From contig CAVTNR010000022.1 in assembly GCA_963736115.1 (NCBI GenBank), positions 1-64,000 on the forward strand: DNA of 64,000 nucleotides, written 5' to 3'. The translations under genes were made by a program, and so were the position numbers. The first letter of the stretch is position 1, and every line of letters begins with the position of its first letter. The notes below the pieces were generated by a model. That model was not told the DNA's origin and searched no databases. It saw only the letters and a list, made by a program, of their open reading frames with translations. Positions 3,144 to 61,962 of the stretch are shown here, one piece after another. Source of the DNA: an uncultured bacterium. GTDB lineage: Bacteria > Zhuqueibacterota > QNDG01 > DTFT01.

Positions 3144-4840
<1,697 letters not shown>

Positions 4841-4844
<4 letters not shown>

Positions 4845-7303: not shown

Positions 7304-7387
7304 GGAGAGCTAGTCCTAATTGGTAAGGCGTCGGTCTTGAAAACCGATGGGCGAAAGCCCTTGGGAGTTCGAGTCTCCCGCTCTCCG
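7304..7387 (+). tRNA. tRNA-Ser(TGA)
   Basis: GGAGAGC/GCTCTCC acceptor stem, TCGGT-ctTGAaa-ACCGA anticodon arm, long variable arm GGGCGAAAGCCC, GTTCGAGT T-loop; CCA not encoded. Confidence 0.93.
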
Positions 7388-7498
7388 CATTTAGAAGTTG
7401 AGTCAGCGGGTGATCTTGCCGAATCGGATCATGAGGCCGATTCGTTGTTGACCAAGCAATTGTATTTATAAGGTATTGAAGGTCTCCCGCTCTCCGCA
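7373..7498 (+). repeat. 17-bp direct repeat of the tRNA-Ser 3' end (att-like) flanking a 92-bp segment
   Basis: GTCTCCCGCTCTCCGCA at 7373-7389 and 7482-7498. Confidence 0.8.
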
Positions 7499-7776: not shown

Positions 7777-9239
7777 ATGACATCTCAATCTTCAGTGCCC
7801 GTTGTCGTCCGTTTCGCGCCGAGCCCCACGGGCTACCTGCACATCGGCGGGGCGCGCACCGCGCTGTTCAACTGGCTTTTCGCGCGGAAGCAAGGCGGCC
7901 GCTTTCTGCTCCGCATCGAGGACACGGACACCGCGCGTTCCAGCCCGGAGATGACCGACAACATCCTCATGAGCCTGAAATGGCTCGGCCTGGACTGGGA
8001 CGGGGAACCCGTGCTTCAGTCCGCCAACCGGCCGGAGCACGTGCGGCTCTGCCGCGATCTCCTGGACCGCGGGCTGGCGTATCCCTGTTTCTGCGACCCC
8101 GAGGAACAGCGCAGGCGCCGGGAGGAAGGTCCTCAGGCCGGGACGGTCTATAAATACGAGCGGACCTGCCTGTCCATACCCCGGGCCCAGGCCGAGGCCC
8201 GCATGAAGGCCGGCGAACCGCATGCTGTACGGTTCCGCATACCGGACGGCCGGACCACGGTCCAGGACCGGATCCGAGGCGACGTCACGGTCGAGCACGC
8301 GGAACTGGACGATTTCGTCATTCTCCGCTCGGACGGAACGCCCGTCTACCAGGTGTCCGTGGTGGCTGACGACCATGCCATGGCGATCACCCACGTCATT
8401 CGCGGCGACGACCACCTGTCCAACACGCCCAAGCAGATTCTTCTCTACCAGGCCATGAACTGGCCCGTCCCCGAGTTCGCCCATGTGCCCATGATTCTCG
8501 GACCGGATAAAAAGCGGCTGTCCAAACGTCACGGCGCCACGTCCGTCGGGGAATACGAAAGGCAGGGCGTACGGCCCGAGGCTTTGCGGAATTTTCTGGC
8601 CCTGCTCGGATGGTCGCCCGGTGATGACCGGGAGATCATGACGCTTGCCGAGATGACGGATGCGTTCTCTCTGGCTTCGGTATCGAAAAAGTCCGCGGTG
8701 TTTGACGAAGCGAAGCTCGCCTGGATGAACGCCCAGTATCTGTCCCGGCTGACGGACGCTGAGTGGCTGATGGCCGCGGAACCTTTCCTGCCGGCCGGTG
8801 CGGCGGACGCCGGAGGATCAAAAGGCTGGATTCCCCTGATGCGTCCACGGGTGCAGAAGCTGTCCGAGCTGACTGAGGCGGCGGCTTTCTTTTTCGCGAT
8901 CCCGAATCCTACGAGCCGGCGGCGGTTGCGAAACACTGGCCCGGACCGCAGGCCGCGGACATTCTGGACGCAGTGCGGGACTGCCTGCGGGGCGCGGACT
9001 GGAGTGTGGCCACGCTCGAGGCGGCGGTTCGAGGCCTGGCGGAAAAACGCGGGGTGAAGGCAGGCGCGCTGATTCATCCGGTGCGCATCGCGCTCACGGG
9101 CAGCGGTTCGAGTCCGGGACTGTTCGAGGTTATCGAAACGCTGGGGGCTGAAACCGTGTTCAAGCGGATGGAAAAGGCCGGGGTCTGGATACGATCCGCG
9201 GGGAATCCGGCCGGAGATGAGGGTAGCCGCGGCCTTTAG
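7777..9239 (+). CDS. gltX: Glutamate--tRNA ligase (one frameshift near 8895, probable error)
   Basis: RFAPSPTGYLHIGGAR, RIEDTD, IRGDDH, KRLSKRHG; the anticodon-binding domain (HPVRIALTG..SPGLFE) continues in another frame after TTCTTTTTC. Confidence 0.92.
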
Positions 9240-9301
9240 GCCGCGCGGTCGCTTCCGGGGGCGTCGTCGGAGTAAAACACGGTCGTAAGACCGCGGCGAC
9301 C
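9223..9301. repeat. GTAG-type REP-like palindrome doublet
   Basis: GTAGCCGCGGCCTTTAGGCCGCG followed by an imperfect inverted partner ACGGTCGTAAGACCGCGGCGAC. Confidence 0.55.
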
Positions 9302-10466: not shown

Positions 10467-11399
10467 ATGCCGCGTCTTTCCAAACGGTTTCGCAAAGCGC
10501 GTAAGGCTGTTCAGCACCGAATCGAGTATGTCCTCTTCCGGGGGCTGGTTTATTTGTGCGGCCGTGCGTCCATGAAAACCGTTCGCCGTACGGCCGACGT
10601 CATGGGACGTCTCGCGTTCTCCGTTCTTCGCCTCCGCCGGTCCGTCACGCTCGACAATCTGGCCATCGCTTTCCCCGAAAAACCGGCCGAGGAACTTTGC
10701 CGCATCGGCCTCCGAACGTACCGCAATTTCGCCAGGACGTTCATCGAATTCCTGCGCTTTCCGGTCATGGACCGCGACGCTTTGATGTCGCTTTGCGATT
10801 TTCCGGGGCAGGCCGTTCTCGAGGACGCGCGTAAAAACGGAAAAGGCGCTCTTCTCATCAGCGGACATTTCGGCAACTGGGAAATCGTGGGGCCCTACCT
10901 CGCCGCGAGGGGAGTCGCCGTCTCCGGCATCATCGGCCGGCAGAAAAACCGCGCGGTCGACGAGGCGACCCGGCGTTTCCGCGAGAAACTGGGGATGCGG
11001 GTCATCCGTCCCGGTGTCGCGATCCGGGATGTTTTCCGCGCCTTGCGCTCAAACGATTGCGTGGCCATTCTCGCGGATCAGGACGCGCACGCAGGCGGTG
11101 TGTTCGTGGATTTCATGGGCCGAAAGGCTTCGAACCACCAGGGCCCGGCCGTTTTCTCGATCCGCACGGGCGCGCCGATCATTTTCGGATACGGTCTGCG
11201 GCTTCCGGACGGGCGGTACAGCATCGAGGCACAACCGCTCTCCATCGACAGCATCCGAGAGGAGACGCCGGAAAACGTACATCGCATCACCCAGGCCTAC
11301 ACCTCGCTACTGGAGAAAGCCGTGCGCGAGCATCCGGATCAGTATTTCTGGATGCACAAGCGGTGGAAGACGAGACCGGCGGGGGAACAAAGTTCATAG
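10467..11399 (+). CDS. Lipid A late acyltransferase (LpxL/HtrB family)
   Basis: GHFGNWE, LADQD, FMGRKA, HPDQYFWMHKRWK. Confidence 0.9.
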   Translation: MPRLSKRFRKARKAVQHRIEYVLFRGLVYLCGRASMKTVRRTADVMGRLAFSVLRLRRSVTLDNLAIAFPEKPAEELCRIGLRTYRNFARTFIEFLRFPVMDRDALMSLCDFPGQAVLEDARKNGKGALLISGHFGNWEIVGPYLAARGVAVSGIIGRQKNRAVDEATRRFREKLGMRVIRPGVAIRDVFRALRSNDCVAILADQDAHAGGVFVDFMGRKASNHQGPAVFSIRTGAPIIFGYGLRLPDGRYSIEAQPLSIDSIREETPENVHRITQAYTSLLEKAVREHPDQYFWMHKRWKTRPAGEQSS

Positions 11400-11494
11400 T
11401 TCATGGTTCATAGTTCATAAAAAAAAGACGGGGCCTTGGATGAAGGAGGCTGCCGTCTTTTTGCTTTTTAACTATGAACCATGAACTATGAACT
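11391..11494. repeat. Heptamer inverted-repeat element (RGTTCAT)n...(ATGAACY)n
   Basis: AGTTCATAGTTCATGGTTCATAGTTCAT ... ACTATGAACCATGAACTATGAACT. Confidence 0.9.
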
Positions 11495-12538
11495 TTTAAG
11501 TCCCGGAAGCATTTCGAGAATCGTTTCCGCCGCCCTCAGCCCGGCCTTCCCGTCCAGGCTGTCGAACATGTGACGGCTGGCTTCTCGCCTGGCCGCACGG
11601 TGTTCGCCGGGATTCTCCAGCGCGGCCTCTATCGCCCCTGGCAGTTCATCCGCCGAGTCGATGCGCAGGCTGATCCGGTCGAGCATTTCCCGCACATGCG
11701 GGACGGAGCGGCGCGAGTCCGGGACGCGGAACGTCACAATGGGTTTGTCCAGGCCGCAGAATTCGGCGATGATGGAACTGGAATCGCCTACGAGCACGTC
11801 CGCCAGCAGGAGGTAGGGAAGGGTGTCGGGGTCCTCTATGAAACGCACTCGTTTCGTCCGCCGGAGCGCCCGCACGTACCGGCCGGATGTCCAGGGATGC
11901 ACGGTCGCGAGAATGTTGTAACGGTCCGTCAGCGACAGGAGCGACGGCAACCATCGGTCCACCGCGGACATGCCGCTCCGGTTCCAGGTGGCGGTGAAGA
12001 TCACGGTAGGCTTGTCCGGGTCCAGCCCCAGACGGAGCCGGAGTGTCTCGAGTTTTTCCGGCGTCCATGTGCCGTCAAAAGCCGGGTCCAGCTTCGGAAA
12101 ACCGACGGCCCGGGCCGTGCGTATACCGTGTTTGACCGCGCGTTCAAGCTCTTCGCGGCCGGTGAGGAAATACGCGTTGAATGCGTTGTAGTATTTCGCG
12201 CCCGCGAATGATTTGAACGTGTATGCGCCGTGCCGGAACCCGATGCGCACAATGGACTCGCAGGGGAACAGATGGGCGGCGTGGCGGCACATGATCACAG
12301 CGTCCGGGAACACGGGCCAGAACCGCACGGACAGGCCGAGACTCCGCGCGTAACGGGCGGTGCGGCGGTTTTTCACCACAACCGGCATGGCCGGGAGGTG
12401 CTTCAGCACCGGCCTCAGCAGGGCTGCGTCCATCGGCACCGCGCAGAACGCGGCAACGGCCGGCCTGCGGCCCAGCCGTCCGGCCAGTCGCCAGAGCAGG
12501 CAGTAGGGGCCTTTGATGAGGTAATAAGAGGGGATCAT
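11486..12538 (-). CDS. CDP-glycerol glycerophosphotransferase (TagB/TagF)-family protein
   Basis: FRHG, VGFPKLD, ATWN, HP, ADVLVGDSSSIIAEF..LDKPIV, DGKAG motifs. Confidence 0.75.
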   Translation of the reverse strand: MIPSYYLIKGPYCLLWRLAGRLGRRPAVAAFCAVPMDAALLRPVLKHLPAMPVVVKNRRTARYARSLGLSVRFWPVFPDAVIMCRHAAHLFPCESIVRIGFRHGAYTFKSFAGAKYYNAFNAYFLTGREELERAVKHGIRTARAVGFPKLDPAFDGTWTPEKLETLRLRLGLDPDKPTVIFTATWNRSGMSAVDRWLPSLLSLTDRYNILATVHPWTSGRYVRALRRTKRVRFIEDPDTLPYLLLADVLVGDSSSIIAEFCGLDKPIVTFRVPDSRRSVPHVREMLDRISLRIDSADELPGAIEAALENPGEHRAARREASRHMFDSLDGKAGLRAAETILEMLPGLKSS

Positions 12539-13594: not shown

Positions 13595-13624
13595 TCGAAG
13601 CGATCCCCTCATTTATGAATCTGA

Positions 13625-13910
13625 TCGCTCGCGCATTCCCCGCCGCTTGCCTTCAACCAGAAGGCATATAATAGCTTGGTCCCGTGTAGCGGGCGGCGGG
13701 GTAAGCGAGTGAATATAATCTGTTTTCTTCTTTACAGATAGAAGATTCCCCGGCTTCGCCGGACCAAGCTATACAATTTTATCTGTTTGAAGGCCCGCGG
13801 CTTGCCTTCAATACTCCAGAAATATAATAAATTGGTCCCGCAAAGCGGGGTCTTCAATAATTTAAAAATACAATTGCTTGATCCCGAGCAGCGGGCCGCG
13901 GGGAGCTTCA
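13625..13910. mobile_element. Composite of palindromic repeats carrying four 44-45 bp core+hairpin units
   Basis: Units at 13650-13693(+), 13750-13793(-), 13805-13849(+), 13851-13895(+) interrupt the host hairpins CCCCGCCGCTTG^CGGCGGGG and CCCGCGGCTTG^CCGCGGGG; mobility is inferred. Confidence 0.65.
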
Positions 13911-14927
13911 AAGTCGCCGGACGGAACCGGCGTGCAGCCGGACCCGTGCCGCGACGCTCTCGGGCGTCGTGTCGATCATGCAGCGGAAATGCCGTTCCGG
14001 GCACCGCCTGCCCCCGTGCCGCGAGCAGGGCCTGCAAGCCAGGTCCTGCTCCAGAATTTCGTCTCCGGGCCGCCAGGGCGCGCAGCCGAAACGACGCACC
14101 GTGGGGCCGAATAGGGCGATCACGTCCGTTCCGGCCGCGTCGGCCATATGCAGGGGCGCGCTGTCATTGGTCACCAGCACATCCAGCCGGCTGAGCACGG
14201 CGGCGGACTCGAGCACGGACAATGCACCCGCGCAATTGACCGACCGGCTCCCCGTTCCGTCGAGCACGGAGGCGCAGAGGCTCCTGTCCTCAGGGCCTCC
14301 CACGGCTGTGAGGTTCATCCCTTCGGCCGAAAGGATGCGCGCCAGCGCGGCGTAATGCGATTCAGGCCAGCGTTTGGTGGGCCACACCGAACCGGGCGCC
14401 AGGCCCACCAGGGGGCCGCCGGCTCGCCGCAGGGAGGCGGTGACCGCATCCGCGGTTTGTTCCTCGGCTTCGGACCATCGCAATTCCGTGCGGTCGTCGA
14501 ATGTCCGGTCCGTAAACGGCGAGAGTAAAGTCAGATAGCGGCGCCGCATGTGCAGGCCCTTCGGCGGAGTAACCGGATGTGTCAGCCCCTTCTGGCGGCG
14601 GAATCCGACGCGAGTTCGGATGCCGGCCGCGGCCATGAGAAAGGACGCTGTGGCGTGAAGCTGGAGCGAGAAGGACGCGTCATAATGTTCCGACCTCAGG
14701 CTGCGCACAAGCCGGAACAGTCCGGCCGTCTTGCGGAAAACCGTGCTCTTGTCCAATGTCCACACCCGGTGGACCGCAGGCGAGTGCTGAAACACGATTT
14801 TCGTCTGGGGTACGGTAAGCGCATCCACCTGCGCGTCCGGGAAGACCTGCGCCAGAGCCCTGAAAAACGGGGTGGAAAGTATGACATCGCCGAGATAGGC
14901 GGTCTGGATCACCAGGATTTTCTTCAT
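13908..14927 (-). CDS. GT9 LPS heptosyltransferase (WaaF/WaaQ-like)
   Basis: QTAYLGDVILSTP, APGSVWPTKRWP, NDSAPLHMA, LFGPT. Confidence 0.9.
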   Translation of the reverse strand: MKKILVIQTAYLGDVILSTPFFRALAQVFPDAQVDALTVPQTKIVFQHSPAVHRVWTLDKSTVFRKTAGLFRLVRSLRSEHYDASFSLQLHATASFLMAAAGIRTRVGFRRQKGLTHPVTPPKGLHMRRRYLTLLSPFTDRTFDDRTELRWSEAEEQTADAVTASLRRAGGPLVGLAPGSVWPTKRWPESHYAALARILSAEGMNLTAVGGPEDRSLCASVLDGTGSRSVNCAGALSVLESAAVLSRLDVLVTNDSAPLHMADAAGTDVIALFGPTVRRFGCAPWRPGDEILEQDLACRPCSRHGGRRCPERHFRCMIDTTPESVAARVRLHAGSVRRL

Positions 14928-27676: not shown

Positions 27677-27704
27677 TGGGGGAGGAGGGGCTTGTCGCCC
27701 AAAA

Positions 27705-27907
27705 GGCGATGGGATTGTGATGGGGGAGCGGAAGGGCGGGGCAGTGGGAAGGGTGTGGAAATCGCCCGAAGAGGCGATGGGATTGTGATGGGGGAGCGGA
27801 AGGGCGGGGCAGTGGGAAGGGTGTGGAAATCGCCCGAAGAGGCGATGGGATTGTGATGGGGGAGCGGAAGGGCGGGGCAGTGGGAAGGGTGTGGGAATCG
27901 CCCGAAG
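27705..27907 (+). repeat. Three tandem copies of a 68-bp G-rich unit
   Basis: Units start at 27705, 27773 and 27841; near-identical. Confidence 0.92.
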
Positions 27908-36420: not shown

Positions 36421-36424
36421 AAAC

Positions 36425-36563
36425 AAGTTCATGGTTGATAGTTCATAGTTCATTGTTAAAAAATGTTCGTGGTTTACAGTTCATCATTCATTGTGAATAA
36501 ATAGATTCATGAGCGACAGATTTTTTTCTGAACTATGAACTATGAACCATGAACTATGAACTG
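36425..36563. repeat. Heptamer inverted-repeat element
   Basis: GTTCATGGTTGATAGTTCATAGTTCAT ... TGAACTATGAACTATGAACCATGAACTATGAAC. Confidence 0.85.
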
Positions 36564-36586
36564 AAAATGTATCCGGAGTACGAAAA

Positions 36587-44027: not shown

Positions 44028-44504
44028 GATAATTTTAAAGAATTTTCATGGGAGGACGTAAAATTTCGCTTGATTTTGATTGTCTGTTATTATAAATTTT
44101 TTAATGAGTTAATCTTGAATGGGATGTTTTTTCGGCCCCATCCGGAGGGCTCAGGCGGCAGGAACTACCTGAAAAGTACCGCGTAAAACCCGGCGATGCA
44201 GTCCTTCTGCACGGATCAATTGATACAGAAGACATACGGGTGAAAAGTCAAATTCCTGTTTTTGAGACGATGTGTTTGGGGTTGCACGGTAAATCGGGCG
44301 GCCAGAAGCCTCGTCATTCTGGTTCCAATTTTCCTGGATGATCGGAGATTGGGCTTCTGGCCGCTCCGACGAGTCGAATTCCCCGCCGCTGGCGGCTTCC
44401 ATCATCCAAGTTACCTGTGATACCCAGCTGCTTGCGGCGGGGTCCTTCATTAGACGGCCATCTGTCCGGATGGGCCGGATCCGGACATGCGAAAGGGAGA
44501 AGCC

Positions 44505-46206: not shown

Positions 46207-47019
46207 ATGAGACGCGGAATACGTCTTCTCCCTCTCTGGATCCTCCTGGTCCTGTCCGCGGCCTGCGTCACGGCGGTTCAGCGGAAACTGGACCGGGACC
46301 GGTCTGTGCATTTTGTGGACACCCGGCCCGTATTTCTGCCGAACGGCAAACTGCTCCGGTGGATGAGCATGGGTCATACCGCGTCATTTGCGGACGCGCT
46401 CTGGATTCAGAGTGTTCTCTACTTCGGCCGGCGGGTCATGGACCACGATAACCCGTATTACATGTATGCCTTGCGTCAGGGAATGCTGGACCGGGAGATG
46501 GAACGCGTCAAGCGGCCGGAAGTGCATCTTCCGGTCAATCCGGGTTTCGAGGTCCTGCATTCGCACCTCTTCTTCGGATTTAAAGAACGCGGCATGGTCG
46601 GCGATGTCTACCCGCTTCTCGACCGGGTGACCACGCTCGATCCGCATTTTATTGATCCCTATATTTTCGGAGGCGTATACGTCCTGATGAGCACAGGCGA
46701 GCTCGACGCGGCGGAAAGCCTTTTACTCAAGGGACACCGGGAGAACCCCGGCTCCTGGAAACTCGCGTTCTACCTCGGCTGGTATTACTGGATGTACAGG
46801 GGGGATGCCGATCAAAGCCGCGTTTATATGGAGCGCGCCGTGGCCCTGCCCGGATGCAGGGATTATGTGTTCAGCCTCCTGAAAGGCGTCTCGCGACAGG
46901 CCGATAAGTTGGACCTGACGGTTCAGTACCTGAGAGGCGTGCTCGAGAGCACGGACAATCCGGAAATCCGGAAGAAGATACAGAAGGAACTCGAAGCGCT
47001 GGAGGCGGCGCGGAAATAA
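46207..47019 (+). CDS. Membrane-anchored TPR-like protein (PilG/XapA-like)
   Basis: N-terminal TM, ADALWI...YFG, TTLDPHF..Y, KG..ENP..W. Confidence 0.65.
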   Translation: MRRGIRLLPLWILLVLSAACVTAVQRKLDRDRSVHFVDTRPVFLPNGKLLRWMSMGHTASFADALWIQSVLYFGRRVMDHDNPYYMYALRQGMLDREMERVKRPEVHLPVNPGFEVLHSHLFFGFKERGMVGDVYPLLDRVTTLDPHFIDPYIFGGVYVLMSTGELDAAESLLLKGHRENPGSWKLAFYLGWYYWMYRGDADQSRVYMERAVALPGCRDYVFSLLKGVSRQADKLDLTVQYLRGVLESTDNPEIRKKIQKELEALEAARK

Positions 47020-47140
47020 GTTCATCGTTCATGGTTCCTGGTTCATAGTTCAAAAAAATGTAATTTATCAGTATTGATTTCCTTCTTTCACTATGAACGA
47101 TACACTATCAACAATGAACTGTTTTCACAATGAACCATGA
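47019..47140. repeat. Heptamer inverted-repeat element
   Basis: GTTCATCGTTCATGGTTCCTGGTTCATAGTTC ... CTATGAAC..CAATGAAC..CAATGAACCATGAA. Confidence 0.8.
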
Positions 47141-52242: not shown

Positions 52243-52333
52243 TTCATAGAAAAAGCCGCAAGCAGAGGTTTGCGGCTTTTTAACTGTATCGGGGGGAGGT
52301 GAACTATGAACCATGAACAATGAACAATGAACT
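52234..52333. repeat. Heptamer inverted-repeat element enclosing a terminator hairpin
   Basis: AGTTCATAGTTCATAG ... TGAACTATGAACCATGAACAATGAACAATGAAC. Confidence 0.85.
52250..52281. terminator. Bidirectional intrinsic terminator
   Basis: AAAAAGCCGCAA...TTGCGGCTTTTT between convergent genes. Confidence 0.75.
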
Positions 52334-52354
52334 CTTAAAGATGAGCTCCTGAAC

Positions 52355-53131: not shown

Positions 53132-53165
53132 GCGGCTTTATAATCCGGCGAGGATTGGATAATAA

Positions 53166-53259
53166 AGTTCATAGTTCATGGTTCATAGTTAAGAGAAATT
53201 TTGGAAAAGCGTTTATTTTTCTTTTTCAACAATGAACTATGAACCATGAACCATGAACT
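53166..53259. repeat. Heptamer inverted-repeat element
   Basis: AGTTCATAGTTCATGGTTCATAGTT ... AACAATGAACTATGAACCATGAACCATGAACT. Confidence 0.9.
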
Positions 53260-53262
53260 TCT

Positions 53263-53709: not shown

Positions 53710-53948
53710 CCGATCCGCTCCCCTATCGAATTAACGTCCGAAATGACTATTCCAAATCGCGGGAATCAAGTTAAAACAGGAACTGAATCCTTTCAAAATT
53801 GAAAGAATCCCCGAGAAAATACCCTGTTTTTAATGGATCAAGCAATTATTACACCAAAGAGAACGATCAGATGGGTTGAAGAAGGGGACAATGGCTGGGA
53901 TCGAAATTTCCCGAGAGGTTTGTTTATCGCATAATATACAAGTATTTA

Positions 53949-55898: not shown

Positions 55899-57301
55899 TC
55901 ACGTTTCTTCTCCCACCAGATCCGGTTCAATCACCCGCATCGTTTTCCATTTCCCCCGGATGAACCGCACGGTGAACACGATTCCGATCACGCAGATGTA
56001 CAGGGTGGCGAACGCCCACAGGGTTTCCAGCGTCGCATCGAACCACAGGACGGCGGCGATCGAAGGCAGGGCCATCAGGCTCCAGGACAGCGCCATGGAC
56101 ACCCACATCACGAATCGGGTGTCCCCGGCGCCTTTCACGGCAGATGCGAACACGATATTTGCGGTGTCGAAGAGGGAGTAGAAGGCGACGAATTTCAGCA
56201 GGCGGACGGCCGTGGCCGCGATCGGGGCGAAACGGACGGGGTCCGCCTGAGCCGCGAATGCGGAGATGAACACGCCAGGGGAGAAAAAGTAAACGGCGGC
56301 CACCGAGGCCATGTAGGCGAAGGTCAGCTCGAAAATGAGGCGCACCGAGCGCGCCGCCTCCTCGGGCCGGTTCTCGCCGAGCCGCTGGCCCACGAGAATC
56401 GACGCCGCCGTGCCGAAACCGAACATGGGCATGAAGGCCAGGTGGTTGATGCTGAAGGCGATGTTGGTCGCGGCCAGCGCGTCCGTACCGAGCCGGCCGA
56501 TGAGAATTAAAAGAGCGTGAAACCCGAGGTTTCCAGCGCGAAATGCAGGCCGTTCGGAAAACCGAACCGGGCCAGCCTGCGAAACAGTCGGACATCCGGC
56601 CGCCAGCCTTTCCTGAAACCGAAACGGTCGCCGTCTCCCCGCCGCAAAGCCAATGCGCCGTATACAGCCATTGACAGAATCTGCGAGAACACCGTGGCCC
56701 AGGCAGCGCCTGCGATTCCCATTTCCGGGAAAGCCCATTTCCCGAAAACGAGCGCATAATCGAAGAATAGGTTGAACAGTGTCGCGGCGAGGGTCACCCA
56801 GAGCACCGTCCAGGTCCTTCCCAGGCCGCTGAAATGATTGGCCAACGCGGATGCGGCGGCCGCGGGGAAAAGGCCGAGCATCATGATGTTGAAATAGGTC
56901 CGCTCGAGGGACTGAAGGCCCGCCGGATGGCCGAGGCTGCTGAACAGCCAACCGGAGAATGGAAGGGTCAGAAGGCCAATGATGCCTGCGGCGAGCGACA
57001 GATAGATCCCCTGCCACACGACCGGCCCGATCCGGTCAAACCTGCCGGCTCCGAAATATTGGGCCGTGAATGTGCCGACATAACCCGCTGCGCCGATAAA
57101 GAGAGAGGCGATTGTAAAATAGATCATGCCTGACGGCATGGCCGCGGCCACGGCCTCAGGCGCGTACCAGGATAGGAATACGCGATCGATGACTGCCTGA
57201 ATGGTCAGCGATCCTTGGCTGAAGATGAGCGGAAGGGAAAGCCTGAGGATATCTTTATATCCCCCGTCCCTGTGCCAGCGTTTTTTCATTCTGATAATCA
57301 T
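55899..57301 (-). CDS. MATE-family efflux transporter (one frameshift near 56510, probable homopolymer error)
   Basis: LSLPLI, AQYFGAG, EMGIAGAAWAT in one frame; GTDALAA, VGQRLG, GAGDT in the other; one extra T restores GFTLFLILIGRLG. Confidence 0.88.
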
Positions 57302-58099: not shown

Positions 58100-58114
58100 G
58101 GCCTTTCACTTTTA

Positions 58115-58197
58115 AGTTCATAGTTCATGGTTCCTAGTTCATAGTTGAAAAGGAAAATCTGTCTCAACAATGAACAATGAACTATGAACCATGAACT
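58115..58197. repeat. Heptamer inverted-repeat element
   Basis: AGTTCATAGTTCATGGTTCCTAGTTCATAGTT ... AACAATGAACAATGAACTATGAACCATGAACT. Confidence 0.9.
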
Positions 58198-58242: not shown

Positions 58243-61200
58243 ATGAAATTCATCGCGGACTTCCACATCCATTCGCATTTCTCGCTCGCCACGAGCGGCC
58301 TGCTCAAGCCGGAGCATCTCGACCGGTGGGGCCGCATCAAGGGCATCCGGGTCATCGGAACCGGCGACTTCACCCACCCGGGCTGGGTGGCGGAATTGAA
58401 GGAAAAGCTGGATCCCGCGGAACCGGGTTTGTACAGACTCAAGCCGGCGCTCCGTCTGCCCGCATTTGGAGGCCCGACGGATGCGGACGACGGCGTCCGC
58501 TTCATGCTCACCGCAGAGATCAGCTGTATCTACAAGCGGTCGGGCCGCGTGCGCAAGGTGCACAATGTTGTCTTTGCGCCGGATTTCGAGAGCGCGGAGC
58601 GCATCCAAAGCCGGCTCAGGTCCATGGACTTCAATATCACCTCGGACGGACGGCCCATTCTCGGTTTCGATTCACGGGACCTGCTTGAACTCTGCCTGAA
58701 CGCCTCTCCGGACATCTTCTTCGTCCCGGCCCACATCTGGACGCCGTGGTTTTCCGCGCTCGGCGACAAGTCCGGATTCGATTCGATCCGCGAATGTTAC
58801 GCGGACCTGTCGGATCACATTCATGCCGTGGAAACCGGGCTCTCGTCCGATCCAGCGATGAACCGGCTGTGCAGTCAACTCGATCCGTACGCCCTCATCT
58901 CTAATTCAGACGCCCATTCGCCCGAGAAACTTGGACGCGAGGCGAACCGGTTCGATGCGGAACTCTCGTACCCCGCCATCATGGAAGCGCTGAAGCATCC
59001 GGACTCGGGCCGGTTTCTCGGAACAGTGGAATTCTTTCCCCAGGAAGGCAAATACCACCACGACGGACACCGCAAATGCGGCATTTCCTGGACGCCGGAT
59101 GAGACGGATCGGCATGCCGGGATCTGTCCCGTGTGCGGGAAACAAGTGACCGTCGGCGTTCTCAATCGTGTGCATCAGCTGGCGGACCGCAGCGGCCAGG
59201 AGGAGAAAATCGGACGGCCGACGTTCCGGTCCATCATTCCGCTCTGCGAAGTGCTGTCCGAGATCCGAGGCACAGGTCCGCACAGCAAGGCGGTGCAGGC
59301 TGATTACGCGGCCGTGGTCCGGAAACTCGGAAGCGAGCTGGACATTCTGCTCGAAGCGGAAGCAGAGGACATCCGGAATGCCGGGGGCGCATTGCTCGTC
59401 GAGGCGGTCAAGCGGATGCGGGATGGACGCGTGTCCGTTGAGGCGGGCTATGACGGGGAATACGGCCGTATTCGCGTATTCGGTCCGGAAGACAGACAGT
59501 CGCTCAGTCAGGAGAGTCTGTTCATCGGTGATTCCGAGCCAGTCGGACAACCGGTCCGGCGGGGGCGCATGAAAAAAAGCGAGGCCGCGGTCGGTGAAAA
59601 AGGATCGAACGGGTCCGGAAGAAAGGAGACGGGGAAGGACGCCGCAGGCGCCGGATTCATCCTTTCGGCACGGCCGAATACCCGTGCCCTTTCAGCGGAG
59701 GAGGGATCCGGCGGGACCGCAGGAGAGGGATCCGGGACGACCGGCCGAGTTCCGCTCAACGCGGAGCAGGAAGCGGCCGCGATTCACGACAGCGGGCCCG
59801 CGCTGGTTCTGGCCGGTCCCGGAACAGGCAAAACAGCCGTGCTGACCGGCCGGATTCTCCGCCTGATACAAGGTCGCGGCGTTCCGCCGGAACGCATTCT
59901 CGCCATCACCTTCACCAACAAGGCTGCTGAAGAGATACGCAGCCGTGTGTCCGCGGCCACCGGGGGGCCGGTAGAAGGGAAGCGGATGCCGTCCGTCCTG
60001 ACTTTCCATTCCTTCGGCCATGCTTTGCTCCGGGAGCGGCCGGACTGTTTCGGCCGGAACCGTGATTTCCGCATCGCGGATGAAGACGACACGCTCGATA
60101 TCCTCAGAACCTTATATCCGGAATCAAAAGACGTTCGTCGTTTCGCGAAAATGCTGAAACAGTCGGTGGGAAAAGCCGGACCGGAGACGGGAGTGACGGA
60201 CGCGGATGCTTCGGACGGGGAACAGCAGGCGCTGAGGGACCGTTACGAAGAAGCGCTCCGGTCCGAAAACCTGTTTGATTTCAGCGATCTGCTGACCCGG
60301 CCGTTGCGGCTGTTCCGGGAGGATGCGGAATGGGCCCGTTCCGTTGCCGGCCGGTACGATCACATCCTGGTGGACGAGTTCCAGGACGCGGACGAAGCGC
60401 AGTACGAGTGGATGAGGCTTCTGGCTGGGCGGGATTCCGGGGCGGGGTCGCCTCATCTCTGGGCGGTGGGAGACCCGGACCAGTCCATATACGGTTTCCG
60501 CGGCGCCAGCCCGGTTTTCATGACCCGGTTCACCGAGGATTTCCCGGGCGTCACGGTGTACCGTCTGACGCGCAGTTACCGGTGTCCGGATACGGTGCTG
60601 CGGGCATCGGGGATGGTTTTACTGAAAGCCGGTTCCGGGTTCCGAGTTCCGGGTTCCGTGTTGGAAGAGAGCGGTTCCGCGTTCCGCGTTCCGGGTTCCG
60701 GGTCGAAAAATGAAAATGATTCGGAAAATGATTCGGGGGGTGTGTCATGCCCGTTAAAACGGACCAAGCAATCCTATTTCTTGAATAGGGAAGGCCCGCA
60801 TTCCTTAAGCGGGCATCCAGGGGCGTGGGTAGAGAGGTCGAATCTCCGCGGAACGGACGAGAAGGTCAAGGTCCGCATTGCGGGAAACGTATCCGAGGCG
60901 TCCGAGGCGGAGTTCATCAGCCGCACCATTGAGGCGATGACGGGCGGCGTTCGGTTCTTTTCCATGGACAGCGGCATCACAACCGGAGCGGAGGAGGAAT
61001 CGCTTGGTTTTTCCGACTTCGCCGTGCTGTGCCGGATCAGCCGTCAGTTTCCGGCATTGGAAAAAGCATTTCGCGATCACGGCATTCCGTACCGCCGCTC
61101 GGACGCGGAGCCGTTCTACAGGCGGGAGCCCGCGAAAACAATCGTTAAGGCGCTTAAAAAATGTTCCGTGTTTCGGGTTCCGGGTTCCGGGTTAAAAGAA

Positions 61201-61962
61201 ACGGGTTCCGAGTTCCGAGTTCAGGGTTCCGGGTTGAAAAACGAAAATGATTCAGGGGGGGATGTCATTCCCGTTGAAACGGACCAAGCAATTCTATTTA
61301 TTGATCGTGGAAGGCCCGCGTTCTTGAAGCGGGAATCCAGGGAGGGGGGAGAGAGTTCAGAGGAAGAGAAGGCTTCCGAGTTCCGGGTCCCGAGTTCGGA
61401 GTTGAACGAAAAGGAATGGTCCGAGCTTGCGGCCGTCACGGGCAGGGTGCCTGTCCGCGACCTGATCCACAGGCTGATCTCCGTCCTCCCTCCGGTTTCG
61501 GATCCCGCGGACAGGCTCGATCTGGAACTGCTGGCGGAGCGGTCCGTCCCGTTCGGAACGGACTTGCCCGCTTTTCTGGCCGCGCTGGCCCTGGGATCAG
61601 GACCCGACTGGGTCCGTACCGGAGGCGATTCCGTATCGCTCTTCACCTTGCACGCGGCCAAGGGGCTGGAATTCCCGTGCGTCTTCATCGCGGGCGTGGA
61701 GGACGGCCTTCTGCCCTACACCCTGTCCGGTCAATCCTCCTGCGACCCGGAAGAGGAACGCCGTCTGCTTTACGTGGGCATGACGCGCGCCAAGAAGCAT
61801 CTGATCCTGTCCCACGCCGACCGGCGGGAGCTGTTCGGCCGCATGCGCAATCCCGCGAGAAGCCCGTTTCTCGATGACATCGAACAGACGCTTCTCAGCA
61901 CTGGAAAAGCGCAGGGAAAGAGGGGCCGAAAGCCCGGCCGGGACCAGTTGAATCTGTTTTAG
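58243..61962 (+). CDS. EndoQ-family PHP nuclease fused to UvrD/PcrA SF1 helicase
   Basis: DFHIHS, GTGDFTHP, PAHIWTPW, ETGLSSD, NSDAHS, GKYH.DGH..C, CPVCG; then AGPGTGKT, TFTNKAA, VDEFQD, GDPDQSIYGFRG, TLHAAKGLEF, EERRLLYVGMTRA. Confidence 0.93.
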   Translation: MKFIADFHIHSHFSLATSGLLKPEHLDRWGRIKGIRVIGTGDFTHPGWVAELKEKLDPAEPGLYRLKPALRLPAFGGPTDADDGVRFMLTAEISCIYKRSGRVRKVHNVVFAPDFESAERIQSRLRSMDFNITSDGRPILGFDSRDLLELCLNASPDIFFVPAHIWTPWFSALGDKSGFDSIRECYADLSDHIHAVETGLSSDPAMNRLCSQLDPYALISNSDAHSPEKLGREANRFDAELSYPAIMEALKHPDSGRFLGTVEFFPQEGKYHHDGHRKCGISWTPDETDRHAGICPVCGKQVTVGVLNRVHQLADRSGQEEKIGRPTFRSIIPLCEVLSEIRGTGPHSKAVQADYAAVVRKLGSELDILLEAEAEDIRNAGGALLVEAVKRMRDGRVSVEAGYDGEYGRIRVFGPEDRQSLSQESLFIGDSEPVGQPVRRGRMKKSEAAVGEKGSNGSGRKETGKDAAGAGFILSARPNTRALSAEEGSGGTAGEGSGTTGRVPLNAEQEAAAIHDSGPALVLAGPGTGKTAVLTGRILRLIQGRGVPPERILAITFTNKAAEEIRSRVSAATGGPVEGKRMPSVLTFHSFGHALLRERPDCFGRNRDFRIADEDDTLDILRTLYPESKDVRRFAKMLKQSVGKAGPETGVTDADASDGEQQALRDRYEEALRSENLFDFSDLLTRPLRLFREDAEWARSVAGRYDHILVDEFQDADEAQYEWMRLLAGRDSGAGSPHLWAVGDPDQSIYGFRGASPVFMTRFTEDFPGVTVYRLTRSYRCPDTVLRASGMVLLKAGSGFRVPGSVLEESGSAFRVPGSGSKNENDSENDSGGVSCPLKRTKQSYFLNREGPHSLSGHPGAWVERSNLRGTDEKVKVRIAGNVSEASEAEFISRTIEAMTGGVRFFSMDSGITTGAEEESLGFSDFAVLCRISRQFPALEKAFRDHGIPYRRSDAEPFYRREPAKTIVKALKKCSVFRVPGSGLKETGSEFRVQGSGLKNENDSGGDVIPVETDQAILFIDRGRPAFLKRESREGGESSEEEKASEFRVPSSELNEKEWSELAAVTGRVPVRDLIHRLISVLPPVSDPADRLDLELLAERSVPFGTDLPAFLAALALGSGPDWVRTGGDSVSLFTLHAAKGLEFPCVFIAGVEDGLLPYTLSGQSSCDPEEERRLLYVGMTRAKKHLILSHADRRELFGRMRNPARSPFLDDIEQTLLSTGKAQGKRGRKPGRDQLNLF
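60631..60820. repeat. Composite repeat inside the helicase CDS (heptamers + REP-like hairpin + 45-bp unit), copy 1
   Basis: (GTTCCGR)n arms, then GTCATG^[60750-60794]^CCCGCATTCCTTAAGCGGGCATCCAG. Confidence 0.85.
61163..61404. repeat. Composite repeat inside the helicase CDS, copy 2
   Basis: (GTTCCGR)n arms, then GTCATT^[61270-61314]^CCCGCGTTCTTGAAGCGGGAATCCAG, then another heptamer run. Confidence 0.85.

Follow-up and report, generated by a model that had tools for sequence, protein, structure and literature searches.

SMR-A of Haloquadratum walsbyi is a mobile repeat of ~110 bp with terminal inverted repeats, which lies without target duplication within palindromes of palindrome-associated transposable elements (PATEs) and IS605-type elements, and whose mechanism is left unexplained in the published account (PMC3119063). 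Ends-only PATEs of 52 bp and a mobile repeat of 80 bp are reported in the same work. Among repetitive extragenic palindromes (REPs), some families sit inside small target palindromes and lie in frame in UvrD-type genes (PMC3733652), and non-canonical RAYT-associated structures have also been described (10.1101/279083). How REPs spread is stated as an open problem (PMC8266576), and so is the spread of the palindrome-targeting SMR-A (PMC3119063). Here, we describe a unit of 44–46 nt found in a 64,000-nt window (positions 1 to 64,000 of contig CAVTNR010000022.1, assembly GCA_963736115.1, from an uncultured bacterium), where four copies occupy one IS200/IS605-like miniature element at 13620–13911. 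The unit is real, independently mobile, structure-targeted and recursive. Its lifestyle is known from the SMR-A precedent, and its anatomy and a guide-like covariation appear to be new.

The unit was compared with SMR-A by published description. Both are free of a transposase gene, make no target duplication and insert in near-terminal palindromes of PATEs and IS605-type elements, but SMR-A is archaeal and has prominent terminal inverted repeats, whereas the much shorter unit has none and carries one terminal hairpin (PMC3119063). The unit also enters REPs and itself, while insertion of SMR-A into SMR-A accounts for 1 of 114 events in Table 5 of that paper. Miniature inverted-repeat transposable elements differ in having terminal inverted repeats and target duplication. 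With REPs and their RAYT transposases the unit shares a short perfect stem and a 5′-foot tetranucleotide whose pairing may fit the cut site (PMC8266576); however, its tag is TGRT and not GT[AG]G or CGTC, it has a fixed 31-nt 5′ extension and sharp ends, and it moves as a single hairpin. For REPs, the cited literature regards the doublet as the moving unit. Absence of terminal inverted repeats and of target duplication, a subterminal hairpin and the motif CTTCAA, which forms the host right end, recall IS200/IS605 elements and PATEs. Yet the unit has one 3′-flush hairpin in place of two set back from the cuts, has no constant target of 4–5 nt and is opened 7 nt before the TTCAA end. The hosts fit the IS200/IS605 family and the unit does not; of each family compared, here and below, it fails a defining test. 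In the open-access full texts searched, no element of 45 nt with a single hairpin and self-nesting was described; neither ISfinder nor subscription journals were part of this search.

Host element and its four units

After removal of four units (13650–13693, 13749–13793 in inverted orientation, 13805–13850 and 13851–13895; U1 to U4 in Table 1), the host at 13620–13911 folds into two 8-bp GC hairpins with CTTG loops. A sequence-only reading of this DNA had proposed that taking out 13650–13693 restores a hairpin, and the 8-bp stem with its CTTG loop was indeed recovered. Removal of 13805–13895 also restores the second hairpin as proposed, but only when the inverted unit at 13749–13793 is taken out as well; the same stretch, described as two tandem units plus 1 bp, does consist of two units of 46 and 45 nt, whereas the supposed extra base is the variable 3′-terminal purine of the element. 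U3 and U4 are identical at 32 of 46 positions, and U1 is identical at 42 of 45 to a unit sitting in a different host hairpin of another assembly. No target duplication was found, as had been claimed; loop junctions share 1–2 bases (G, C) with the unit, though, and foot junctions 3–4 (part of CGGG), which leaves the exact crossover ambiguous by the shared-base count at both kinds of site. The inverted unit at the hairpin base does take the position used by the copies in a helicase gene: for H1 and H2 (Table 1), too, it is the 3′ foot of the host hairpin.

The host hairpins, likened in the earlier reading to IS200/IS605-type ends, do lie in an element with boundaries of that type: most true host copies have TGAA in front of the left end, and every listed right end is CTTCAA. 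Two subterminal hairpins, a constant target tetranucleotide, the absence of duplication and the lack of coding capacity place this host with IS200/IS605-type PATEs; no cognate TnpA was seen for it. The supposed uninterrupted relative of the same host at 44381–44449 turned out to be the right part of a different element (44294–44449) with two imperfect hairpins.

Family census and anatomy of the unit

A pattern scan of 185,579 species genomes gave 56 loci (numbered with the prefix L), 33 of which show the full anatomy (CAZNXX 11, JAFGAX 10 with one duplicate, JAUCQC 7, JBFZEN 3, CAZTZL 1, JAFGLS 1). The remaining 23 are singletons, without a hairpin by eye and with covariance-model scores of at most 25.3 bits; most family copies score 35–69 bits and the weakest accepted window copy 23.4 bits, so that the border with non-family sequence is not clean. 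Looser searches yielded 74 matches, compared with 0–2 in shuffles, and together with hand curation 73 copies, seven from the window and 66 from five other assemblies (unclassified metagenome bins). Excluded from this set were the copy in JAFGLS, the locus present in duplicate, two false matches of the regular expression and ~7 degenerate or cut-off copies. Copy ends were curated by hand; automatic end-calling over-extended several hairpins. The seed pattern favours one subfamily, and every count given here is therefore a biased sample. In the window, the core pattern matched seven times against 0.26 expected, a number reached in 0 of 100 shuffles.

The consensus reads YCTTCAA, 16–21 AT-rich bases, (C)TTGRT, CCCG-N5-CGGG and an optional purine. 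Length is 44–46 nt in 57 of the 67 copies with a callable end, 41–48 nt in nine and 64 nt in one. The GC hairpin is flush with the 3′ end, shows compensatory changes in its stem (CG, GC, AT and TA at one pair) and has a C-GNA-G loop in 32/62 copies, while the AT-rich middle is free in sequence and nearly fixed in length. The 5′ end is nearly invariant, and the 3′ end varies by 1–2 nt or runs long. Terminal inverted repeats are absent, YCTTCAA and CGGG(R) not being inverted repeats of each other. The sole constrained flanking base is the one before the unit (G 65, A 5, C 3; n = 73), and there is no constant tetra- or pentanucleotide. TATAAT occurs 6 nt before the R of TTGRT in 30/73 copies, and a required internal promoter was rejected on this count.

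Over orthologous genes, the window is 86–89% identical to CAZNXX. A search of Rfam returned tRNAs only and no family for the unit, and BLASTN of 13630–13915 against plasmids and phages gave just chance matches of 27–29 nt (E 0.9). In a tree of 59 short rows the branching stayed unresolved, and it gave no phylum placement of the carrier assemblies. One short-stem copy (L029:1590–1631) lies in a Syntrophaceae-labelled contig, beside helix-turn-helix and primase-zinc-finger genes, and represents transfer between lineages or a binning error.

Insertion sites

Empty sites were reconstructed for 55 insertions, after 13 copies in nested or contig-edge clusters had been dropped and five tandem junctions merged. 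Stems of 8 bp or longer enclose 39/55 of these sites, compared with 103/800 random intergenic positions and 85/480 intergenic G^S steps (^ marks the junction or cut); the sites are not independent, but by median 17 of the 24 site classes pass the stem test. Measured from the hairpin axis, site positions concentrate at +2 (19 sites), +9/+9.5 (14) and −3 (4). Junction dinucleotides are G^C (27), G^G (16), G^A (5) and others (7). A tabulation of filled against empty sites and of junction positions had been set in advance as the check, and by it the junctions are not random relative to hairpins, which upholds the proposal of structure-targeted, repeated insertion.

The host loop with CTTG is the commonest site class; foot, REP and self sites differ from it. 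The host hairpin with its GCTTG loop is used as the earlier reading had it, but this scope was too narrow. Filled hosts comprise both hairpins of the 13620–13911 element, both of a second family, REPs of the GTAG and the CGTC type, several unrelated hairpins and the unit's own hairpin, so that at least four unrelated palindromic repeats are hit, with insertion on either strand. The carrier assemblies hold 9 empty and 19 loop-filled miniature-element hairpins as well as empty REPs (five of the CGTC and four of the GTAG type). At a few sites (L014:498, L021) a clear hairpin is absent. A 2-bp GC target duplication was rejected because many junctions have no GC on one side, and so was a parse of foot insertions with the host hairpin on the right and the unit hairpin on the left, since it is the left hairpin that has the 11-nt loop or the sequence of empty hosts.

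Inverted foot units and loop units often form head-to-head pairs, 11 nt apart, in one host hairpin (window 13749–13850; L008, L011, L016, L022, L024, L027, L035, L037, L040, L042). In these pairs, the hairpin of the foot unit recreates a host-like hairpin. The arrangement may reflect selection or seed bias.

Tandem stacking and nesting

Arrays are built by tandem stacking, as had been noticed, but nesting builds them too: self-nesting is four levels deep in L053 and was also found in L008 and L024. Local duplication, replication slippage or mis-assembly could be invoked for such arrays, as G-rich palindromes are where the copies concentrate, every source is a metagenome bin, and at L021:3040–3200 a unit appears repeated together with ~35 nt of flank, like a duplication that includes the flank (this repeat suggests read-through beyond the hairpin, as far as the following A^C step). 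Seven tandem pairs, however, are identical at only 28–36 of 46 positions (61–78%), whereas units identical at 42–45 of 45 positions occupy four different host hairpins across assemblies. For five of the seven window units the closest relative lies outside the window, and identical ends recur in 73 copies from six sources. Because tandem neighbours are so diverged and near-identical units sit in different hosts, local duplication is excluded as the source of the tandem copies, in agreement with the earlier reading, and we consider it, with slippage and mis-assembly, hardly credible as an account of the family. The unit is very probably an independently mobile, hairpin-targeting element.

Covariation and predicted fold

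The first base of the unit varies with the R of TTGRT (CG 57, TA 12, CA 3, TG 1; n = 73) and is complementary to it in 69/73 copies. This coupling is significant in Fisher tests over the 73 copies (p 3e-10) and over 37 middle-sequence clusters (p 1.4e-4). In an alignment of 43 rows, no column couplings are stronger than those of the same pair and of one stem pair; the alignment holds 21 double-sided changes, a level reached in 0/500 shuffles and far above slid controls, this control ignoring relatedness. Most simply read, the G-R-T preceding the hairpin would pair with bases 1 and 2 and with the last base of the unit, both ends meeting on one helix, and a DNA guide at a hairpin foot would be expected to covary in this way. 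At the natural U3–U4 junction, the predicted fold is such an extended stem, with the ends together. The C-GNA-G loop is a DNA mini-hairpin motif, described as stabler in DNA than in RNA (PMC13037366), and thus points to folded top-strand DNA.

Favoured mechanism and alternatives

In the best model that we can offer, and to which we give an even chance, a single-stranded circle would be cut and joined in trans by a Y1 HUH enzyme similar to RAYT or TnpA. The non-autonomous unit of ~45 nt would move as single-stranded DNA, on one strand of which G-R-T 5′ of the hairpin would pair as described and thereby juxtapose the ends. The TGRT tetranucleotide would act like the GTAG guide of REPs and set the cut between a purine and a pyrimidine. 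Encoded elsewhere, a RAYT/IS200-TnpA-like nuclease would cleave at this point and keep the 5′ end as a phosphotyrosine; the released circle (or protein-linked strand) would be joined to a 3′-OH made in another hairpin, mostly at a G^C step by the loop or at the foot of the stem. With every insertion a usable junction would remain and a hairpin be added, which would explain both tandem and nested arrays.

The exact 5′ end with a looser 3′ end, the absence of duplication, the hairpin targets and the fit to a guide together make this the preferred model, and a nearly invariant 5′ end with a loose 3′ end is what 5′-phosphotyrosine chemistry would allow. That the hosts themselves are hairpin substrates of the HUH enzyme class also counts for it. 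A REPIN excision has been reported whose points lie at the 3′ ends of palindromes (PMC3337134). By the RAYT guide rule as given in PMC8266576, the base before the cut pairs with position 4 of the tetranucleotide and the one after it with position 3 or 2. Applied to TGRT, the rule predicts purine^C or purine^complement-of-R, and judged from sequence the left junctions fit it in 66/73 cases. Among HUH systems, IS91 is similar in making no duplication, in a CTTG target, which the unit uses at its commonest site, in a hairpin by the terminal cut and in occasional long 3′ variants (10.1101/2025.01.24.634351), but many unit sites have no CTTG/GTTC, and the ends of mini-IS91 reported there (89 and 82 bp) far exceed the whole unit.

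Several results weigh against the HUH model or the evidence behind it. Right junctions fit the guide rule in only 42/67 cases, and foot insertions, mostly G^G or G^A, are the main misfit. Over eight coarser clusters the coupling of the first base with R gives p 0.13, so that part of it could be shared descent, and in isolated linear units the end-joining fold is not the minimum-energy fold. Presence or absence was seen just for host and unit together, with no orthologous filled/empty pair for the unit alone, and no circle of the unit was observed. No HUH, transposase, IS110 or reverse-transcriptase gene is present among the 59 open reading frames (ORFs) of the window, nor among the 278 of 330 non-redundant locus ORFs scanned against Pfam (the remaining 52 are mostly long, and the second batch was scanned at E 1e-22 only), the family loci spanning ~0.42 Mb of several genomes. 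Escherichia coli RayT as query gave no match in 7886 six-frame segments. A look for HUH, IS91, IS110 and reverse-transcriptase signature motifs in the family-locus ORFs produced nothing credible beyond two tyrosine recombinases, the hypothetical ORFs adjoining units offered no common candidate enzyme, and no RAYT gene was seen beside any copy in the family loci.

Movement of the unit as a circle by a site-specific recombinase with a core of 1–2 bases, either an integron-type tyrosine recombinase acting on a folded strand or an IS110/IS607-type enzyme in trans, seems to us unlikely. A single crossover in the 1–2 shared bases (G, C) of loop sites would suit it, a folded stem would enclose the circle junction, as it does at attC sites of integrons, and an integron-integrase-like tyrosine recombinase gene (L056:635–1645) lies 5 kb from one unit. 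This integrase, however, is near only 1 of 33 loci, with no cassette array beside it in the 1.6 kb examined; the GTT/AAC box is absent from the unit consensus, and unlike attC sites, the units lie between housekeeping genes. Nor do the junction dinucleotides hold a constant core, and the targets share structure, not 10–14 bases of sequence. From the IS110 family, ISPpu9 inserts in REPs and mobilises the transposase-free module ssr9 through minicircles with an AG core, so that REP palindrome insertion, circular intermediates, a transposase-free module and tandem copies are points of likeness (PMC12288879). Yet as described there, the AG core is invariant, the target is one REP consensus, and the module is much longer and encodes a small RNA. 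Varying junction dinucleotides and unrelated targets separate the unit from IS110/IS1111 in general.

Still less probable is that the unit is a circularly permuted, ends-only derivative of an IS200/IS605 element (right-end tail, left end, one hairpin), which would enter by exchange between similar stems without a dedicated cut. From hairpin foot to hairpin foot, the junction of a host right end and left end in L004 measures 46 nt, has the same layout and contains CTTCAA; foot and tandem sites share 3–4 bases with the unit end, and ends-only PATEs do exist (PMC3119063). Loop sites, the largest class, share just 1–2 bases, however, as do GTAG-REP sites and self-nesting. No copy was seen to be opened at the standard transposase cut, after TTCAA, with a seed pattern biased against such copies, and 48/55 TTGRT hairpins have the head upstream, none of the seven headless ones being then followed by a head. 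Such a derivation could be compatible with the HUH model as the origin of the unit, which would still need its enzyme. Very improbable to us is a route by a processed RNA with 5′ tag, variable middle and 3′ stem, which would enter hairpins through reverse transcription or reverse splicing. Such is the build of a mature type I CRISPR RNA, which resembles the unit, and the TATAAT noted above could be counted for it, but TATAAT is missing from 43/73 copies, the middles (16–21 nt) are related to each other and not captured spacers, and neither Rfam nor Pfam lends support: there is no Rfam family, and no cas or reverse-transcriptase gene in the scanned window and locus ORFs. The loop motif, moreover, is the one that is stabler as DNA.

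Possible, though in our estimate doubtful, is a class of self-guided micro-transposons, in which a 45-nt single-hairpin DNA with an internal guide that juxtaposes its ends would find its targets by their shape and not their sequence, would be moved by a still unrecognised single-strand nuclease and would hyperparasitise REPs, IS605-type elements and its own copies. If this were true, the mobile repeats of 52 and 80 bp in the cited papers would both be longer than such elements, and a lone REP-like hairpin could be a transposing unit. The family also offers what REPs and SMR-A lack, namely sharp ends on both sides, several hosts in both filled and empty form, an order of nesting and a naturally occurring compensatory pair from which the cut site is predicted. 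As the whole substrate is one oligonucleotide, the mechanism is directly testable given a candidate enzyme. A frame-keeping, structure-targeting unit of 45 nt is in addition a route for protein inserts and for the disabling of IS605-type elements.

Other features of the window

The features of the window are listed in Table 1.

Table 1. Positions of units, hosts and short repeat blocks in the 64,000-nt window
Feature	Position	Strand	Description	Basis
Host, IS200/IS605-like non-coding miniature element (PATE-like)	13620..13911	+	112 nt when empty, two GC hairpins	Relatives in four assemblies with TGAA before left end and CTTCAA at right end; empty fold
Unit U1	13650..13693	+	44 nt, C/G type, loop of host hairpin 1 (CTTG^C)	
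Unit U2	13749..13793	-	45 nt, inverted, foot of host hairpin 2	
Unit U3	13805..13850	+	46 nt, C/G type, loop of host hairpin 2	
Unit U4	13851..13895	+	45 nt, T/A type, tandem to U3	
Long variant T1	7419..7482	-	64 nt, different 3′ hairpin, downstream of tRNA-Ser	
Unit H1	60750..60794	-	45 nt, foot of CGTC-type REP (60744-60820), within PHP/UvrD helicase ORF, frame kept	
Unit H2	61270..61314	-	45 nt, equivalent position in second CGTC-type REP (61264-61340), same PHP/UvrD helicase ORF, frame kept	
Second host family, IS200/IS605-like miniature element	44294..44449	+	Empty here	
6-7 nt repeat blocks	60620-60730, 61150-61410, 11389-11501, 36424-36567, 47017-47120, 52292-52347, 53157-53260, 58108-58197			

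Both hairpins of the second host family are empty in the window and filled in L012, L015, L016, L019, L024, L025 and L027. Its target is looser, T-N-N-A (44294–44449; L019:9860–10070; L025:9901–10075), and the element present in L025 is absent from the orthologous site in L019. A GTAG-type REP at 9223–9250 is empty; REPs of the same kind carry units in L030, L040, L041 and L052.

The long variant T1 is inserted in a hairpin adjoining a duplicated 3′ fragment of tRNA-Ser. The 3′ end of this tRNA-Ser(TGA) gene (7372–7388) recurs ~110 nt downstream (7483–7498), resembling an attachment-site remnant, with T1 at its edge. At 53834–53849 and at L030:21–36, a conserved upstream motif like the unit middle plus TTGAT box occurs without head or hairpin, possibly by chance or as a decayed copy. 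The former was rejected as the end of a long autonomous element, having no head motif, no covariance-model match and unrelated flanking genes.

Short tandem repeats of 6–7 nt form two families and stand as paired inverted blocks between genes; they also lie in frame within the helicase ORF, around both REP-plus-unit inserts. A glutaminyl-tRNA synthetase-like gene (3144–4844) and a MATE transporter gene (55899–57301) are each split into two ORFs, by a frameshift or an assembly error. Between convergent genes, 27698–27907 holds three purine-rich tandem copies of 68 nt that are 96–97% alike.
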